From Oligoflexia bacterium (lineage in GTDB: Bacteria > Bdellovibrionota > UBA1018): a stretch of 64,000 bases of DNA. Position numbers and translations under genes: made by a program. Below are positions 4,662 to 56,467 of the stretch, in pieces. The notes beneath the pieces are model-generated. The model saw nothing but the letters and a program-made list of their open reading frames with translations. It was not told the origin of the DNA and ran no database searches. How positions within the stretch are numbered: position 1 is the stretch's first letter; the number at the start of each line of letters is the position of its first letter. Location: contig CAIZRG010000029.1 in NCBI GenBank assembly GCA_903935335.1, forward strand, positions 5,406 through 69,405, given 5' to 3'.

Positions 4662-5758
4662 CGTGAAACTACCTCTACAGCTCTTAATTCACGCAAAACA
4701 ACGACGCTCATCTGACCCGGAAATTGGACTTCAGCACCGATCTTTTCTGCAACCCGACGCGCTACTTCAGAAAGCTGCTCATCTTTGACTTGATCACTAT
4801 CCACAAATACTCGCAATTCTCTCCCTGCACGTACAGCAAAAGCAAATTGTACCCCAGGAGTTTGTTGAGCAATCAATTCCATCTGAGTGGCTCTTTCTAA
4901 TGCTGTTTGAGTCGATCCATGCCGAGCCCCTGGCCTAGCTCCTGACAGAGCGTCTGCTGCCAAAACAAGATGATCAAGCCACGAAACAGGAGCAATTTCT
5001 TCATGATGAGATGCAATCGCCTGAACAATGACTTCCTTTTCACCATACCTCTGAGCAAACTCTGCACCCGCTTGAGCATGTCCTCCATCATGAGTTTGAT
5101 CTAAACCTTTACCTAAGTCGTGAAGTAAAGCCGCCCTTCTTGCTAAAAAAACATCAAAACCAAGCTCCAAAGCAAGGTTTCCACAAAGCCAAGCTGACTC
5201 AATCGAATGATCGAGTTGATTCTGGCCAAAGCTATGGCGAAATTTTAAAGTTCCTAAAACTCTCAAAATGGCTGGATGTAAATCTTGGATTCCTAAAGAA
5301 AGAGCAGAATTTTTACCTGCTTCTCTGACTTCTTGGTCGATTCGAATCTGAGCTTCTTCGAGTGCTTCTTCAATTCTGGCCACTTGAATCCTTCCATCCT
5401 GAATCAAAGAGCTCAAAGCTAAACGAGCCACCTCTCGACGAAAAGCATCAAAACTTGAAACTAAGACCGCATCGGGTTCTTCATTTAACACTAAATCAAC
5501 CCCTGCACGCTCCTCAAAATGTCGAATGTTTCTCCCCTCTTTGCCAATAATTTTTCCTTTTATGCCTTCTTCCAACTGACTCTGAGTCAATTTGACTCTA
5601 GAGGTTGTTGCATGTGAAACAAAGCGGGTAGCTTGTCTAGAAACCGCAATCGCCAGGAGCCGTCGAGCTTGATCTTCTGTATCCAAGTAGGAGGGTTGGC
5701 CTGAAAGTGTTTCATAGCGCTTAAAAAAAGTCATACCTTCATCCTCTGATCCATCCAA
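4658..5758 (-). CDS. rny: Ribonuclease Y catalytic core (KH + HD domains), lacking the canonical N-terminal transmembrane/coiled-coil region
   Basis: KH motif GKIIGKEGRNIRHFEERAGVDLVL, HD motif LLHDLGKG, and end-to-end similarity to B. subtilis RNase Y residues ~190-520. The ORF-track start codon is a TTG (plus 5756..5758 = caa); the frame is closed upstream and overlaps the ygfA 3' end. Confidence 0.85.
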   Translation of the reverse strand: MDGSEDEGMTFFKRYETLSGQPSYLDTEDQARRLLAIAVSRQATRFVSHATTSRVKLTQSQLEEGIKGKIIGKEGRNIRHFEERAGVDLVLNEEPDAVLVSSFDAFRREVARLALSSLIQDGRIQVARIEEALEEAQIRIDQEVREAGKNSALSLGIQDLHPAILRVLGTLKFRHSFGQNQLDHSIESAWLCGNLALELGFDVFLARRAALLHDLGKGLDQTHDGGHAQAGAEFAQRYGEKEVIVQAIASHHEEIAPVSWLDHLVLAADALSGARPGARHGSTQTALERATQMELIAQQTPGVQFAFAVRAGRELRVFVDSDQVKDEQLSEVARRVAEKIGAEVQFPGQMSVVVLRELRAVEVVSR

Positions 5759-49948: not shown

Positions 49949-51361
49949 TTACCTGTCAATATGAGAAAGACCTTGAGCAGCCTCATAATCAGCTTTTGCT
50001 TTATGAAAATCAGCAAAAGCCTCAATCTCTTTGACCATTGCATCTCGAGTTGTCTGTTCCCTTAAATTGACAATCAGAATGCTACTGTCTCCATGCTCAG
50101 CTCGAATCCGCTCAGCAGCCTCAAGCTTTTTAGAAAGCTTCACCTCATCTTTAACTAACAAAAGACGTGAATAAGCTGCTTTCATTGCCAAAACTGAGTC
50201 CTTCAACTGCATTTCTAAGCGATTTAAGATGAACTGCTGAGATGCCAAAACTCGATCTATAGCTGCTAAACTAGCCTTGACTTGACCCCTCGCTCCTCGG
50301 AAGAAAAGAGGGAATTCTAAAACAAGACCCATACGAAGCTCGCTAGGATATTGAGTTGGGGGAAGATACGAATTTCCTGCATTCACTCCAAAATCTGAAT
50401 AAATTCCGATATGGAAATCGAAACGAGGTAAAAGCTGATTTTGAGCGAAACGAGCTTGTGTATCTACTTGTTGTAATTGAAATGCTATTTTTCTTACCTC
50501 AGGATGATTGGATAAAAAATTATTACTTTTTTCAGCTTTTTCAATAAGTTGACTCAATTCACTCGAAGAAAAAACCCTCGGCAAAAAATCTATAGATGGG
50601 ATACGGGGCTCGCCAGCAGAATTTCGATAATAAAGAGACAACTCAAAAGATGCCTTCTGAAAAGCTCTTTCTGCTGCAATCACATTGGACTGTCTTTGCA
50701 AAACAGATCGCTCGTTATCCGTCTGATCAAACTCTGGAGTATCGCCATGCCAAACTTTCTTTTGAATGGCATCACTCCTCAATACTGCAATTTCTAATAG
50801 CTCTTTCATAATTATAATTTTTTGACCTGTAAAAACCCAATCCCAATATTTACAAGAAGCCTGTCTGACCACTTCAAGTCGTTGAGACGAAACATTGGCT
50901 TGAACTCCCTTGAACCCCTGTTCTGAAGTCATGATCGTCATTCGACGCTCATCAATAGGACCTCCTTTTAAGAGAGGAACCTCCAGTCCAGCACGAAACT
51001 CACCGTCTGTAAAAGTTGCCATTTTGGCCTCATAGATCGGGAAATTGCCATCTCCTTTCCTCCAACCTCCAAACAGACGGGTTCCCCAAAGACCTGTGGG
51101 CTGTTCTACACTGAAATCCATATAATTATTAGAGTAATAACCTATCCTAGATTTTGAATGTGCAGCTTTCATCACTGGATCAAACCCACCATAAGCCGAC
51201 TGAAGCTCTCCTTGTGCTTTTCTAGCTTCTGCTTCAGCTAACAAAATCAAAGGATAATTCAGCTGAGCTGCATCAATGACTTCACTCAAAGTCAGAACAG
51301 AAGCTCCAAAACTTTTACTAACCCAACAAAAAAATAATAAAAAACACTTAAAAGTAAGCAT
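49949..51361 (-). CDS. TolC-like outer-membrane efflux protein
   Basis: Signal peptide, two OEP repeats, ~470 aa; last gene of the ABC-MFP-OMP trio. Confidence 0.75.
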   Translation of the reverse strand: MLTFKCFLLFFCWVSKSFGASVLTLSEVIDAAQLNYPLILLAEAEARKAQGELQSAYGGFDPVMKAAHSKSRIGYYSNNYMDFSVEQPTGLWGTRLFGGWRKGDGNFPIYEAKMATFTDGEFRAGLEVPLLKGGPIDERRMTIMTSEQGFKGVQANVSSQRLEVVRQASCKYWDWVFTGQKIIIMKELLEIAVLRSDAIQKKVWHGDTPEFDQTDNERSVLQRQSNVIAAERAFQKASFELSLYYRNSAGEPRIPSIDFLPRVFSSSELSQLIEKAEKSNNFLSNHPEVRKIAFQLQQVDTQARFAQNQLLPRFDFHIGIYSDFGVNAGNSYLPPTQYPSELRMGLVLEFPLFFRGARGQVKASLAAIDRVLASQQFILNRLEMQLKDSVLAMKAAYSRLLLVKDEVKLSKKLEAAERIRAEHGDSSILIVNLREQTTRDAMVKEIEAFADFHKAKADYEAAQGLSHIDR

Positions 51362-51411
51362 TTACTGATTCTTCCAAAAACTGTTCGTTAGAAACCTAAT
51401 AATAAACTTTC

Positions 51412-52443
51412 CTATTTTGATTTTTTCATCCATTGAGGCGGACCCTCCATAGCAGGGGGAAAGCCATTAAACTTCCTCCAAAGCTCATAACCCAACTTAA
51501 CACGACCTAAAAGGATCCAAGCATGCACTCGAACACCTTGCCTAAGATACTGACTGGAAGGCCAAGGATTGTTAGGCTCTGGAATAATTAAAATTCTAAA
51601 CTTCCCATCTCCACTATCTGCAGCATCAATAACAGCTACTCGCCCTGCAAAAGTCCCTGTAGAAACAGAAGGCCATCCACTAAATTGCATGGCGGGCCAA
51701 CCCTCAAACTGCAAACGTACAACCTGATCTCGATGAATTAAGGAGACATCATTCCCAGGAATCCAGACCTCAGCCGCTCTTGAGTCTGTATCCGGAACTA
51801 AAGAAAGCAAGTGCTCACCTGTCTTAACCAAGACCGAACTTTCTCCTGCCATTCGCCTTAAAATCGATCCACTTCTAGGAGCTCGAACAAACTGAGTACT
51901 CTGACGTGCTAGCCGAGTATCAATCCGCATGAGTTCCATTCGAGTATTTGCCTCATCCGTCAAATACTTTGCATGCTCAAGCTTGGCTAGCTCAAACGAA
52001 CGCCTCGAACTTAAACCTTGCTCTGACAAAGATTTTTGCCGATTCAAATTAATCAAAGCAGTCTCCTTTGAAACCTGAGCAGCATTCAGCCTGGCTTGAA
52101 TCGCATCTTTTTCAACTTGCAAACGATTGAGAAGATCTGGGTCATTATCCGATATCTCTACAATGGGATCACCCTCCTCCACATGAGATCCCTCATGGAC
52201 AAACCACCGGACCAGCTTTCCTTCGACCGGAGCATCCACATGCTGCTGCCTCTCTGTGGGTGAGTATGCAACCACTCTCCCACTCCCCATTGAAGTCTGC
52301 TGCCAAGGAACCATCACCATGATTGTACACCAGAGAACTAAACCTGCAGATAACGCCTGTCCAATACTCTTAAATCGTCTTTTAGGTGCGACTTGAGTGA
52401 GAGAACTCAGATTTCGTTCGAGCTTTAAGATTTCATCAAACAT
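51412..52443 (-). CDS. HlyD-family membrane-fusion (periplasmic adaptor) protein
   Basis: N-terminal TM anchor, coiled-coil hairpin region, and beta-barrel/lipoyl motifs (…PIVEISDNDPD…RAPRSGSI…). Confidence 0.75.
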   Translation of the reverse strand: MFDEILKLERNLSSLTQVAPKRRFKSIGQALSAGLVLWCTIMVMVPWQQTSMGSGRVVAYSPTERQQHVDAPVEGKLVRWFVHEGSHVEEGDPIVEISDNDPDLLNRLQVEKDAIQARLNAAQVSKETALINLNRQKSLSEQGLSSRRSFELAKLEHAKYLTDEANTRMELMRIDTRLARQSTQFVRAPRSGSILRRMAGESSVLVKTGEHLLSLVPDTDSRAAEVWIPGNDVSLIHRDQVVRLQFEGWPAMQFSGWPSVSTGTFAGRVAVIDAADSGDGKFRILIIPEPNNPWPSSQYLRQGVRVHAWILLGRVKLGYELWRKFNGFPPAMEGPPQWMKKSK

Positions 52444-52473
52444 ACAACCCTCTCTATGGTGCTCCAGAAAAGG

Positions 52474-54153
52474 TTAATCTGGATATCTATAGCCATCTAA
52501 TAGAATCACTTGATCACAAAAATGAATCTGCTCCTTTTTCCTTGAAGTAAATAAAACAGAAAATTCGTTGTTTTTTCTTATTAAAAAATTTGCCCAAGAA
52601 GGATCTGATTGAGGATCTAAGTGATCAAAAATATCATCAAAAAGAATAAGTTTAGGCTTTGCTACGATTGCTCTTGCAATCATAATTTTTTGAGCTTGAG
52701 TCGTTGAAAGAGGATACTGCCCACCTGAAATAACAGTATGAAGACCTTGAGGTAATGCACTGATCGGCTCTTCCAAACCTAATTCTCTGAGTACATTTTG
52801 AATTTCATAAATATCAATACCTGCTTTGGATTGAGATAATCGAATGTTATCAAGCAGTGTTCCATCAAAAAGCTGAATCTCAGAAACATAGAAAACTTTT
52901 GAACGAATACTCTCTAAAGAGGCATATTGATAATCAAGCCCTTCAATCTCAATTCTTCCGGCTTGAGGCTTTTCAAGACCATAAAGAAGACGAATGAACC
53001 GAGTTTTTCCAGATCCACCCAAACCTACAATAGCTGTTTTGGATCCTAGACTTAAATCAAAATTCAAAGGAGATTGGCGAGATTCATGCTGTCCAAAAAT
53101 CTGAAGGTCTCGGACTCGGATTAAGGGGAATTCAGAGCTTCTTTCCGATACACTTTCCCCTCCCAATCGTTCAAGTGGTAATTCAAAAATATATCCTATT
53201 TTATCCAAAGCACCTGCTAAATCATAATAACTTTCAAGATATTTACCAAATTTTCCAATTCCTGAAACGACAGAGCTTACAATCAGCTCAGAAGCAACCA
53301 ACTGACCTAACGTCAGTTGCCCCTGAGTCACTAACCAACCTCCTAGCCCTAACAATAAAACACTGGCTGCAATTTGAAGAACAATCGCAGCAACAACCTG
53401 TTTAAATAAATAAGTAAAATGATTTTTTGCACTCACAATATATTCTGTTGTCAATAAATCTGCCTTTTTTAAAGCAAAATTTCTAGATTGAGTAGACCGA
53501 AAAGATTCATAATTTTTAGCAAGCTCCTGAAGCCAAACTGCAACCGAGTGTTTTGATTTAGACTCTTGAATATTTGACTCAATAGCTCTATTTCCCAGTC
53601 GAACAAAAAAAACAGAAACAAAAATAATAATAATTAAATTAAGAGCTAAAAGAAAAGGATGGTAAAACGCTAGGAGAAGCATTCCAAAAATAATCTGTAA
53701 AACAACCACAGCTCCATCTAAAATCAAAAGAGTGGTTGTTTTTTGAATGACTGTTACATCAAAAAAACGATTCACTAATTCAGGACCTTGATTTTCACGA
53801 AAGATCTTTGAATCTAACCTAGGAATCCGCATAGCCATTTCCATGGCGATTTTTGAAAACAATCTCTGCTGAAGAATCTCAGCCACAGAAACCTGTAAAG
53901 CCCGCATAGCTCCTGAAAAAGTCAAAAAGGTAAATACAATAAATGTCAGTACAATGATGGGTTGAATCAACAAACCAAAACCGATGGTATTCACAAAGGT
54001 CTGAACAGCAATGGGAACAACCAAGGAACAAATCCCCACCCAAATTCCATAGATCACCAAAATCCAAAGATCTTCTTTTTCCTCCATGATCAGTAATTTG
54101 AAAAACTTCAAAAATCGACCCAGGGAAGAATGAACAAAACGTGTGGTTCTCAT
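52474..54153 (-). CDS. Type-I-secretion-like ABC exporter (fused 6-TM domain + NBD, PrtD/HasD-like, no C39 peptidase domain) with apparently degenerate catalytic motifs
   Basis: Walker A GLGGSGKT is intact. The signature reads LSTTQAQKIMIARAI (vs LSGGQRQRIGLARAL), Walker B reads ILFDD (vs ILDE; catalytic Glu→Asp), and the H-loop reads VLFTSR (vs IAHR; His→Ser). Confidence 0.7.
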   Translation of the reverse strand: MRTTRFVHSSLGRFLKFFKLLIMEEKEDLWILVIYGIWVGICSLVVPIAVQTFVNTIGFGLLIQPIIVLTFIVFTFLTFSGAMRALQVSVAEILQQRLFSKIAMEMAMRIPRLDSKIFRENQGPELVNRFFDVTVIQKTTTLLILDGAVVVLQIIFGMLLLAFYHPFLLALNLIIIIFVSVFFVRLGNRAIESNIQESKSKHSVAVWLQELAKNYESFRSTQSRNFALKKADLLTTEYIVSAKNHFTYLFKQVVAAIVLQIAASVLLLGLGGWLVTQGQLTLGQLVASELIVSSVVSGIGKFGKYLESYYDLAGALDKIGYIFELPLERLGGESVSERSSEFPLIRVRDLQIFGQHESRQSPLNFDLSLGSKTAIVGLGGSGKTRFIRLLYGLEKPQAGRIEIEGLDYQYASLESIRSKVFYVSEIQLFDGTLLDNIRLSQSKAGIDIYEIQNVLRELGLEEPISALPQGLHTVISGGQYPLSTTQAQKIMIARAIVAKPKLILFDDIFDHLDPQSDPSWANFLIRKNNEFSVLFTSRKKEQIHFCDQVILLDGYRYPD

Positions 54154-54179
54154 GAAGCTTTACCTTTTAAATATCATAC

Positions 54180-55943
54180 TCAATTAGTCCGCAAATAAGA
54201 AATAGAATCACTCCTCGAGTTCCGATAAGCAATATCGGCAAAAAATGGACCCACATGGCATACTCTCCAAATCCACTGATTGGGTTGCTCACTCGGTAAA
54301 CGCTTTAAAATCATTTCTGTCACAAAGGAACGCAATGGATCCTCTAGGAGATAACGAGGATCCTCTAATCTTTGAGGGCCTTCGTAAATAGACAGATCTC
54401 CGTTTAATCCTGATAAAACTAATCCAAATCGACTCATAATGATCAGATCCGTTTTTTCTAAAAAATCCCAGGCACGCTCTTGAAATTCACTAAAATCTAA
54501 GAATCGCGTTAAATCCCAACTTGGGTGCCGAAAAGAAAGCTCAACCAAAACATCCGGAAGAGAGGTTTGCCAAACTCGAAGCGGATGTTTCTTAGACTGA
54601 TCTCCAGCCACTCGTTCAATGCAATCCACCCACTGACTGTAAGCAGACCAAGAATAAGAAGCAGGCATTTTAAACTGGATCGAAATATTGGCTGCTAACG
54701 ACAAAACAGCATAGGCTCCCACACAAAAACGTCCTAAAGAAAATCCTGAGAAAGTGGATGAACGAGATAATTTCATCATAAAAAAAATGGCTAACCAAGG
54801 CCATAAAGTCAAATGACACAGAGTAATAAACCAAACCTCAGGTTTAGAACACCAAAGGTATAAGCTTGTCCAAAAGGCCACACCTGCAGCAAGAAAGAGC
54901 TCTATTTGATTTCGATTTTCTGAACGAATTTTTTTGTTTACCATCAAAACGAAAAAATATAAAAAATGACCGCTCAAGAGGATCACCATGAGCCAAAAAA
55001 AACCTTTTGCCAAATTAAAAAATTTAGGCAAGCCTTCAGGATTTCCAATCGAAAGAAACAGACTATGAAAGAAAAGATAGGGGTTTGCAATCCATGAATT
55101 AATACCACTCAGGCGACTAAACTGACTACCCATCTGCTCTAAAAAAAGAGAAGGATGAGCTAAAATATAAACTCCCCACGGAATTAAAAATAAAGAAGTT
55201 CTCAGTCCTACTGCAAAAAGTCTTTTAATCCAATTTTTTAATTCTTTCTGCAGATTATTTTGAATTTTAAAAAGCCCTATAGATGTTGCAGGAACTAGAA
55301 TAATCGCTTCAAAATGAAAATAGGCCGCCAAAGCAAGCCATAAAGAAATCAACCAAAATCGCCGACTATCCTTCCTCAAAACTGAGTGGTCCTCTGACTG
55401 AAACGCATGAAGCTCCATCAAAATCATGAGCCAAAGCAATCCAATCCAGATCTCACTACGAACCACCAAAGTTCCCCAACGACAAATCGGATCCCATAAG
55501 GCAACCAAACCTAAAATAAAACTTAATAATATCGATTGAGTCAATCTCCAGGTCCAATACCCTAGCATCCATGCCCAAATACCAAGACCCAGAAGACTGA
55601 TAAACTTAATCGCCAAAGTGGCACCTAGAAGCTTACCTAATCCCAAATGCATTCCTATCCCAAGAAGAGCAGGCAAGAGGGGCATCATATTGAAATTCGC
55701 GATATCATAGGATGGGATGAATGCAGCTTGACTATGCATAACCCACCGAGGAGGCCAAGCTAAAAGTGATAATGAAGGAAGATAAAACGCAGATCCATCC
55801 GGCCAAGGAACAGGACTAAAAGATAAACAAGTAAAAGAAAACCAAGCTACCGTCACACCTACTATAAGGATTGACACTAGAACTGATCCAATTGTCACAA
55901 TAGAACTTCGTTTCATATTTTTTGAAAATTCATGATACAACAT
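54180..55943 (-). CDS. Large polytopic membrane protein (~12 TM) with ~150-aa C-terminal soluble domain; possible GT-C-fold (ArnT/PMT-like) glycosyltransferase
   Basis: Hydrophobicity pattern; no catalytic motif confidently recognised; first gene of the exporter array (26-nt gap to the ABC gene). Confidence 0.5.
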
Positions 55944-56467
55944 TTTTTAAATTTTTTACCACTCCCACAAGAACAAGGATCATTTCTACCCATTTTTGGC
56001 TCGGTTCTACGAACTGTTCCTGTTTGAATCCTTTGAGCATCAAGGAATCTCCAATCCCCATTCTCTTTTTCAAAAAAACTTTTCTCCCAATGCTCATGAG
56101 TCTTAGGATCTCCTGGAGCATCTCTTCGATCTTTGTAATAAGCGACAAAAACAAGGGTTTCTTTTTCATGATCGACTCCCCCTGGTTCTTCTACTGCTTT
56201 TTCCCGTGGATCGACCTGAATGATCTTTAAACCTAACCACTCTGAATTTTTTGACCAGTCTTCGATTTCATCGCGCTTTAACTCATGACGTGTTCGAGAG
56301 TGATGAGTTGCAAGGATAAAATCGATCTCCCCTCGAGTAAAAGCAGTGTATCGTGCTCTCAAGAGTCTTTCTGCCGAAGTTGCTTTTTCTCTGCCCTCAA
56401 TGACAGGAAGACAACACTCCGACAAAAGAAGTTCAGAACCACAGGGACAGAAATTTGAATCAGACAT
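55913..56467 (-). CDS. YchJ-family protein (two SEC-C metal-binding motifs flanking an NTF2-like domain)
   Basis: N-terminal [13 protein letters not shown] and C-terminal [15 protein letters not shown]. Confidence 0.75.

Follow-up and report, generated by a model that had tools for sequence, protein, structure and literature searches.

Exporters of the ATP-binding cassette (ABC) type are understood to be driven by hydrolysis, and degenerate catalytic sites are thought to be tolerable only beside a working site. The absence of the Walker-B glutamate is accepted as the mark of a site incompetent for hydrolysis (PMC7544095, PMC7756269), and such sites have been described in heterodimers or full-length transporters, where they are paired with an active site (PMC7756269). 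In a large review of tripartite systems, degenerate sites come up for heterodimers alone, TmrAB being an example. Here, a trio of genes encoding an ABC exporter, a HlyD-type adaptor plus an outer-membrane protein (OMP) resembling TolC was analysed in a 64-kb stretch of DNA from an Oligoflexia bacterium (Bdellovibrionota; positions 5,406 to 69,405 of contig CAIZRG010000029.1). This whole stretch is referred to as the window and all coordinates are positions in it. The Lon protease encoded in the window was 79-86% identical to Lon proteins from uncultured Bdellovibrionota, which, together with the metagenomic origin of contigs carrying identical copies, points to an uncultured member of this phylum. 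With the type I secretion systems (T1SS) HlyB-HlyD-TolC and PrtD/HasD the trio shares an ABC half-transporter of the type-IV fold, an adaptor anchored by a transmembrane (TM) helix and a TolC-like duct. With the heterodimeric exporters TmrAB, TM287/288, BmrCD, TAP1/2 and MsRv1273c/72c, its ABC protein shares the kinds of defect (Asp in place of the Walker-B Glu, a missing switch His and a signature that departs from the consensus), but those exporters split the defects over two chains and keep one site active (PMC7756269), whereas one chain carries all of them here. Overall, the architecture is plainly T1SS-like while the energising subunit departs from the class-defining property. The three genes were as follows:

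52474 to 54153, minus strand: half-size ABC exporter of 559 aa (Pfam ABC_membrane and ABC_tran)
51412 to 52443, minus strand: HlyD-type membrane-fusion adaptor of 343 aa (Pfam HlyD_3, HlyD_D23 and Biotin_lipoyl_2)
49949 to 51361, minus strand: TolC-like outer-membrane factor of 470 aa (Pfam OEP, 2.7e-28, two repeats)

The original prediction, made from the DNA letters, had described four co-directional genes with gaps of 26-50 nt, namely a membrane protein resembling glycosyltransferases of the GT-C fold followed by an ABC/HlyD/TolC set. All four open reading frames (ORFs) were present on the minus strand in the order GT-C, ABC, adaptor and OMP with gaps of 26, 30 and 50 nt, and the Pfam matches listed above showed that the trio is real.

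The motif register of the ABC protein was determined with HMMER alignments to solved exporters (ABCB1, ABCB4 and PCAT1) and MAFFT alignments of 120-200 homologues, and the motif coordinates were verified by translation:

53002 to 53025, minus strand: Walker A GLGGSGKT, canonical in the alignments to solved exporters and homologues
52867 to 52890, minus strand: Q-loop region YVSEIQLF without the conserved Gln, aligned to vSQEpvLF of ABCB1/ABCB4
52696 to 52710, minus strand: ABC signature LSTTQ, aligned to LSGGQ of the solved exporters
52633 to 52647, minus strand: Walker B ILFD-D, aligned to LLLDE of ABCB1/ABCB4
52540 to 52542, minus strand: H-loop position with Arg538 instead of the switch His, from un-gapped alignments

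The signature kept its Ser and had Thr in place of both glycines of LSGGQ. In Walker B, the Mg-binding Asp506 was retained and the catalytic Glu was replaced by Asp507. The register of Arg538 was un-gapped against both 'IAHRL' of ABCB1 and 'TTH[NVD]' of the family, with the same result, and Arg538 lies 31 residues from the Walker-B residue, a spacing to the H-loop His that we take to be the same in HlyB. The D-loop Asp was intact. In total, four of the five catalytic elements of the nucleotide-binding domain (NBD) were non-canonical, with the residues that bind Mg-ATP (Walker-A Lys and Thr, Walker-B Asp) remaining. The alignments bore out the intact Walker A, the LSTTQ signature and the Glu to Asp change that had been read by eye, and no canonical LSGGQ, Glu or His was found at the expected positions. 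The reported loss of the H-loop His was also correct, but its replacement is Arg538 and not Ser537. The catalytic degeneracy is real and wider than first listed since the Q-loop Gln is missing as well. This sets the protein apart from HlyB and PrtD: the catalytic Glu, the switch His and the signature Gly are lost in the window ABC protein and the Q-loop Gln is absent family-wide. Judged by these residues, the window copy is at an intermediate stage of decay, with the residues for Mg-ATP binding kept and those for hydrolysis gone, and we infer that it retained ATP binding, lost hydrolysis and may work in a gate or channel mode.

The window ABC protein consists of a type-IV exporter transmembrane domain (TMD) fused to an NBD. 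It begins about 25 residues before the first TM helix, with no Pfam match to C39, and thus carries neither a C39 nor a C39-like domain at its N-terminus. The AlphaFold2 (AF2) model had a pLDDT of 80.7 with a confidently folded NBD, and its top Foldseek matches were TmrB, HlyB and PCAT1, of which TmrB was the best; PCAT1 was also the best bacterial sequence match in the PDB. In NCBIfam, the protein scored 123 bits with TIGR01846 (HlyB; cut-off 726) and 122 bits with TIGR01842 (PrtD; cut-off 510). The best curated models were LssB (TIGR03375, 164 bits, cut-off 693) and the NHLM-type exporters (TIGR03796/03797), all at 164-166 bits and 4-5-fold below their cut-offs, so that no T1SS ABC cut-off was reached. 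The label 'PrtD-like' given in the original prediction is therefore only approximate. Canonical members of the family also remained below the curated cut-offs (160-210 bits with LssB and NHLM ABC1/ABC2 compared to about 700-850), and no Pfam or NCBIfam model beyond generic domains was matched at cut-off by the trio family. The Legionella LssB/LssD system and the NHLM/PCAT exporters share the overall domain order of the window ABC protein. Unlike NHLM/PCAT systems, the window protein has no peptidase domain and the locus has neither a leader-peptide cargo gene nor a second NHLM-type ABC gene; no second ABC gene was found anywhere in the 64-kb window. An adjacent NHLM-type ABC pair was considered and rejected, as none turned up in 88 family loci; the two extra ABC genes of one related locus (L004) were weak matches (56-69 bits) on the opposite strand.

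Relatives of the trio were collected by scanning one genome per species with the ABC alignment, which produced 582 relatives in four phyla (Planctomycetota, Acidobacteriota, Myxococcota and Bdellovibrionota). Neighbourhoods were examined for the best 80 of the 582 relatives and for individually fetched loci, and 88 loci entered the gene-order counts. About 65 of the 88 loci showed the order ABC-adaptor-OMP with a single family ABC gene, and a second family ABC gene beside the first was found in none of them. A phmmer search with the TMD only, against 1.84 billion proteins, recovered 1,242 clusters (at 50%) at E ≤1e-30 and 2,123 at E ≤1e-3, which indicated a large and sharply bounded family. 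The trio thus belongs to an uncurated HlyB/PCAT-like family of tripartite systems. Most ABC proteins of the family are about 720-760 aa long and have an N-terminal extension with a sub-threshold C39-like match (E 0.001) that lacks the Cys motif; it resembles the non-catalytic C39-like domain of HlyB and was lost in the window lineage.

The degeneracy had been presented as a peculiarity of one gene, but a motif census showed that it is a recurrent trait across the whole family. Among 200 members, the Walker-B Asp was present in 198, the Walker-A Lys in 189, the second signature Gly in 117, the catalytic Glu in 110 (Gly in 50, Asp in 18), the H-loop His in 72 and the Q-loop Gln in no more than 4. 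Only 49 members were canonical at Walker A, Glu, His and LSxGQ alike. When the set was reduced to 136 representatives (non-redundant at 50%), 11 were fully canonical, 97 had neither Glu nor His and 41 (~30%) lacked the Walker-A Lys. Parsimony on a neighbour-joining TMD tree required at least 23 changes for the Glu, at least 16 for the His and at least 20 for Walker A. In the clade of the window protein (P0001-P0006, P0008 and P0012) all members were His-less and three were also without a P-loop, while its sister clade was canonical. On this tree, the catalytic residues of the ATPase have been lost many times independently. P-loop-dead ABC proteins were found in intact trios (L130, L064, L070 and L077). 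A trans-acting ATPase beside such members was looked for and rejected, as the upstream ORF of L064 was a probable β-barrel by eye and that of L070 was spurious. A large planctomycete clade (e.g., L012, L022, L029, L037, L045 and L060) was fixed for a non-catalytic set of motifs (an intact Walker A, LIDG as Walker B, TGR at the H-loop, L[ST]x[SN]Q as the signature and no D-loop Asp), which resembles a stable state of its own more than decay at random. In the full-text literature, as far as journals were covered, neither a homodimeric T1SS-type ABC protein with both sites degenerate nor this family was described. A planctomycete SecA_DEAD/HlyD module (PMC4452313) was rejected as the same system because it has no ABC protein.

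The NBDs are normally the most conserved part of ABC transporters. In this family, the identity was 56% for the TMD compared to 41% for the NBD, and at equal TMD identity the NBDs were 47% identical in canonical pairs compared to 38% in degenerate pairs. The conserved part of the window protein was located as follows:

53164 to 54153, minus strand: TMD of the ABC protein (residues 1-330), strongly conserved and family-defining

Of the 34 invariant columns in alignment A2, 31 fell in the TMD. Comparison of the window with L005, a relative with the same gene order, gave identities of 70% for the adaptor, 68% for YchJ, 63% for the TMD, 62% for CyaY, 55% for the OMP, 53% for the GT-C protein and 48% for the NBD, making the NBD the fastest-evolving part of the syntenic block. 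A TMD conserved above the NBD is a further difference from the HlyB/PrtD systems, as are the OMP gene within the operon and, in the window lineage, a short adaptor hairpin (see below). On these comparisons the trio is judged to be under purifying selection, with strong constraint on the TMD, the adaptor and the adaptor-TolC docking motif, and hydrolysis by the ABC protein, in some lineages also nucleotide binding, appears dispensable.

The same comparisons bear on two other explanations. If the ATPase were fully competent through unconventional residues, with Asp507 as the base, Arg538 as the linchpin and Gln427 as a shifted Q-loop, the trio would be an ordinary T1SS or efflux pump. Such an enzyme would be in keeping with the intact Walker A, Walker-B Asp and D-loop Asp, with the high confidence of the predicted NBD and with the chemical ability of Asp to serve as a base. 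However, four catalytic elements are non-canonical at once, the NBD evolves fastest in the block, close relatives have lost the P-loop entirely, and replacement of the Glu in ABCB1 by Asp, Gln or Ala leaves the same residual ATPase (PMC7756269). Full competence is therefore considered unlikely; residual unconventional catalysis involving Asp507 is possible for the window protein and not for the P-loop-dead relatives. In the second explanation the trio is a decaying relic, a disused pump on its way to a pseudogene. The relaxed constraint on the NBD would fit, together with the lack of an identifiable cargo in the window scan and among the family neighbours and the absence of the trio at the equivalent site of L089. 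Against it, all three ORFs are intact and identical protein copies occur on 10 metagenome contigs, from at least three different samples. In addition, identity to distant orthologues reaches 61-67% for the TMD and 70% for the adaptor, at least as much as for the housekeeping neighbours CyaY and YchJ, and the LIDG/TGR pattern is stably kept across the large planctomycete clade. A relic is very improbable.

The adaptor has an N-terminal hydrophobic helix as TM anchor and a short α-hairpin region of 88 residues. Its identity to a myxobacterial orthologue of 458 aa was 43%, an unusual degree of conservation between Bdellovibrionota and Myxococcota, and the two differ by a clean deletion of 92 residues in the hairpin. 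Hairpin lengths among the adaptor genes of 69 family loci were quantised at 88, ~180 and ~208 residues, and the 88-residue form was found only alongside short-form ABC proteins without the C39-like domain, including that of the window. The deletion of about 46 residues per helix implies a duct that would be about 7 nm shorter by estimate. The tip of the hairpin carries the docking motif shared with HlyD-type adaptors (RLS/RLT):

52006 to 52041, minus strand: RLS motif R135-x3-L139-x6-S146 (RQKSLSEQGLSS) at the adaptor hairpin tip, a TolC-docking motif

The RxxxLxxxxxxS motif for TolC docking was defined for MacA, AcrA and HlyD (PMC3391258). Across the family adaptors, the R was present in 70, the L in 69 and the S in 52 of 74. 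The N-terminus of the TolC-like protein (MLTFKCFLLFFCWVSKSFGA) reads as a signal peptide by eye. The conservation of the adaptor and of the RLS motif in the family indicates a genuine tripartite duct of the T1SS kind.

Since the sole ABC gene encodes the protein that bears all of the defects, both sites of a homodimer would be affected. The ABC protein is presumably a homodimer, given a single ABC gene per system. The alternative is a heterodimer of the degenerate protein with a canonical paralogue encoded elsewhere, leaving one working site as in TmrAB, TM287/288 and TAP. Degenerate sites are known almost only from heterodimers or full-length transporters (PMC7756269), the best Foldseek match TmrB is the degenerate chain of TmrAB, and several phyla hold both canonical and degenerate subtypes of the family. 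On the other side, none of the 88 loci has a second family ABC gene adjacent, and P-loop-dead members retain their own dedicated adaptor and OMP. The Walker-B and H-loop defects lie on one face of the NBD and the signature defect on the other, and hence with any partner the degenerate half would contribute to both composite sites. The paralogues retrieved from Kuenenia (L042/L055 and L056) were also both without the H-loop His. A heterodimer with one working site is improbable on this evidence.

The reading that we favour, with a probability of roughly 55%, is that the trio of this family forms an envelope-spanning duct in which the ABC protein acts as a hydrolysis-deficient gate at the inner membrane, either ATP-gated or very slow. 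The ABC protein would still assemble with its adaptor and outer-membrane partner into the duct. Binding of ATP would close the NBDs and open the duct, and the weak signature would let the NBDs part again without hydrolysis. In the more decayed relatives, opening of the gate would need no ATP. Cargo would pass downhill out of the cytoplasm into the medium without being pumped, and catalysis could decay repeatedly because secretion into an effectively infinite sink should need no thermodynamic energy input. A stroke driven by binding is plausible in view of a single-molecule study of TmrAB entitled 'ATP binding alone powers substrate translocation' (PMC13040083). A conceptual parallel is offered by CFTR (ABCC7), which has the exporter fold, uses ATP binding and NBD dimerisation for gating and conducts downhill flow (PMC8640958). 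Unlike the trio family, CFTR is a full-length protein of eukaryotes in which one hydrolytic site is retained, and the likeness is no more than an analogy. By this analogy, a family-wide transition from ABC pump to an ATP-gated or ATP-independent envelope-spanning channel or scaffold, comparable to the pump-to-channel transition of CFTR, is put forward as a tentative and somewhat doubtful extension.

Several points weigh against a hydrolysis-deficient gate. The catalytic position holds Asp507 and Asp is sometimes a weak substitute for Glu, while some activity might persist through Arg538 together with Gln427, which is displaced by one residue from the Q-loop position. A homodimer is deduced from the single ABC gene per locus, and a canonical paralogue might be encoded outside the 64 kb covered. 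No characterised T1SS or tripartite pump is known to us as a precedent for a duct that works without energy input. About one quarter of the close members are fully canonical and the ancestral system was therefore probably a normal pump. Finally, no cargo was found in the GGxGxD scan of the window or among the conserved neighbours of the 88 loci.

The gene upstream of the trio and the genes that flank the four-gene run were as follows:

55913 to 56467, minus strand: ychJ, SEC-C / NTF2-like (Pfam YchJ_M-like 6.8e-23, SEC-C 7e-12)
54180 to 55916, minus strand: gene for the GT-C-fold membrane protein (AF2 and Foldseek), with an ORF that reaches 55943
55794 to 55814, minus strand: motif PVPWPDG of the GT-C protein, situated in its first extracytoplasmic loop, just after the first TM helix in the AF2 model
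49386 to 49904, minus strand: moaB-like gene (Pfam MoCF_biosynth), 44 nt downstream of the OMP gene

The most likely start of the GT-C gene is the ATG at 55916, nine codons inside the 587-aa ORF, which gives a protein of 578 aa, the start that gene callers chose on three independent contigs with an identical copy. The stop codon of ychJ and this start codon overlap as ATGA at 55913-55916, and therefore the co-directional run begins at ychJ; the overlap suggests that the SEC-C-motif protein and the GT-C enzyme are translationally coupled. Beyond the OMP gene the run continues with moaB, a hypothetical gene, namZ, fadB and further genes, and no convincing terminator between its genes was found by a simple scan. 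The final 29 nt of moaB are shared with a 201-aa ORF at 48809-49414, which had no Pfam or NCBIfam match and was kept in the identical contigs, where it was called as 190 aa.

The GT-C protein has about 13 TM helices and a C-terminal α/β domain that is inferred to be periplasmic. Its AF2 model, built on 38 homologues, had a pLDDT of 87.9 and a pTM of 0.90. The top 14 Foldseek matches in the PDB were all GT-C enzymes (probability 1.0, TM-score 0.46-0.57), among them DPY19, ArnT, ALG9, ALG3, Pmt4, a GPI-transamidase subunit, GPI mannosyltransferase I (GPI-MT-I) and AftB, so the earlier description 'GT-C-like' stood at the level of the fold. By sequence, no Pfam or NCBIfam match and no membership of a curated GT-C family was found, profile searches of the PDB gave only spurious matches to deoxycytidine kinase, and faint TMEM260-like matches were seen in only 2 of the 38 homologues. 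The family comprised 49 detectable homologues, and all of the named ones belong to Bdellovibrionota. Residues P44, V45, P46, W47 and D49 (587-aa numbering) were invariant in the 38 homologues and D80 nearly so. GT-C enzymes carry an acidic residue in the first outer loop (EL1), and by comparison with it Asp49 is a candidate catalytic or metal-binding residue. Overall, the protein shares with ArnT, DPY19, ALG9/ALG3 and PMT the predicted fold, an invariant acidic residue in the outer loop and a C-terminal soluble domain but, unlike them, it lacks a sequence match to Pfam GT-C families or the PDB and is confined to Bdellovibrionota. A second GT-C-type enzyme (Pfam GT87, 427 aa) is encoded at 38909-40192, about 10 kb from the trio, which with the GT-C protein at 54180 makes two predicted periplasm-facing glycosyltransferases in the region. 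The gene beside it (40242-42512) encodes a 756-aa protein without a Pfam match that is helical/coiled-coil by eye.

According to the original prediction, the four genes might form one unit in which the GT-C protein builds a glycolipid or glycan and the degenerate trio exports it. In line with such a unit, the GT-C and ABC genes share a strand and lie 26 nt apart with no convincing terminator, the GT-C to ABC order is repeated in L005 and the GT-C fold is real. Weak envelope hints were also seen beside the trio in Bdellovibrionota: DUF2079 in L004, lpxA-lpxI in L050/L078 and a membrane protein resembling a polyprenol kinase by eye in L129. However, when metagenome contigs were scanned with the GT-C alignment and 8 kb around each locus was inspected, none of the 40 GT-C loci beyond the window had an ABC, adaptor or OMP gene within that distance. 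The GT-C gene was likewise absent from about 85 other trio loci, including those of the closest ABC relatives (L129, L130, L131, L006 and L004). Adjacency of the two was found solely in the window's own contigs and in L005, a 52-55% identical relative with the same order of ychJ, GT-C and ABC genes. L089 has a GT-C gene of 51% identity that is flanked by ychJ, there on the opposite strand, and by a moaB homologue about 1.1 kb downstream, without a trio, which shows that the trio was either inserted or deleted here; the moaB-like gene of the window marks the right-hand edge of the trio insertion. Distant GT-C relatives adjoin GT2 (ArnC/GtrB-like) and sugar-nucleotide epimerase/dehydratase-like genes by eye and not exporters, and such genes are not adjacent to the GT-C gene in the window. 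Moreover, GT-C enzymes work on the periplasmic face, and therefore their products are already past the inner membrane and need no ABC exporter that faces the cytoplasm. Since the adjacency is not conserved, L089 has no trio and GT-C enzymes act in the periplasm, a cargo made by the GT-C protein is quite unlikely. The proximity of the GT-C gene to the trio is best read as a lineage-specific accident of insertion, and the GT-C gene as a separate gene that is probably coupled to ychJ. As a separate observation, the trios of L050 (7666-9863) and L078 (7653-9846) directly follow lpxA and lpxI (by Pfam for L050). Judged by size, the ORFs upstream could belong to a cluster of the bamA-skp-fabZ type. 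This outer-membrane-biogenesis setting was found at no other locus.

In contrast to the HlyB/PrtD systems, no RTX substrate is encoded nearby: the GGxGxD motif was found in none of the 56 ORFs of the window, in agreement with the first reading of the DNA. All-vs-all clustering of the neighbours in the 88 family loci showed no conserved cargo-like gene, only regulators and a small ORF resembling HPF. Two proteins of the window were considered as cargo and rejected, the 756-aa protein without a Pfam match because it is not T1SS-like, and a 535-aa β-solenoid protein because of an apparent Sec signal peptide. The latter (36622-38229) has an N-terminus that reads as a signal peptide and YdcK-type β-solenoid repeats; a kinase with faint YdcK-repeat matches lies just upstream of the L004 trio, probably by coincidence. 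An unfolded peptide or protein as cargo is suggested by the ancestral C39-like domain of the long-form relatives and by the curated systems closest to the family.

The conserved neighbours were NhaR-like LysR regulators (about 18 loci), ArsR regulators (10 loci), another helix-turn-helix family and the small HPF-like ORF. The window has a member of the first group:

61107 to 61994, minus strand: NhaR-like LysR regulator with homologues beside the trio in other phyla

Homologues of this regulator were detected by phmmer in 18 trio loci outside the window (Planctomycetota, Acidobacteriota and Bdellovibrionota), in most cases in divergent orientation some 1.4 kb upstream of the ABC gene. These regulator neighbours hint at stress- or ion-responsive expression of the trio. 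In the window, the LysR gene is divergent from a proton-antiporter-like pair of DabB-like (62079-63617, plus strand) and DabA-like (from 63633) genes, and a DabB-like gene lies directly 3' of the trio in L025. In several planctomycete loci (e.g., L041 948-1397, L046 2845-3168, L054 9064-9405 and L060 9071-9442), the divergent LysR gene is separated from the ABC gene by a small ORF of about 110 aa, which is HPF/RaiA-like by eye. Elsewhere in the window, an 815-aa AsmA/YhdP-like protein is encoded at 13747-16194 upstream of uvrD, glmS and a glmU-like gene; the AsmA-like family has been implicated in lipid transport to the outer membrane.

For annotation, the adjacency of the GT-C gene should not be taken for a glycan-export operon, and the label 'ABC transporter ATP-binding protein' overstates what is known of the ABC genes of this family. 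If the gate reading is true, a tripartite export duct can function without a canonical motor. The family would then provide a natural 'mutant series' for telling ATP binding, hydrolysis and gating apart, both in type-IV exporters and in T1SS, and the trio would represent an uncharacterised envelope system that is common in four environmentally important phyla.

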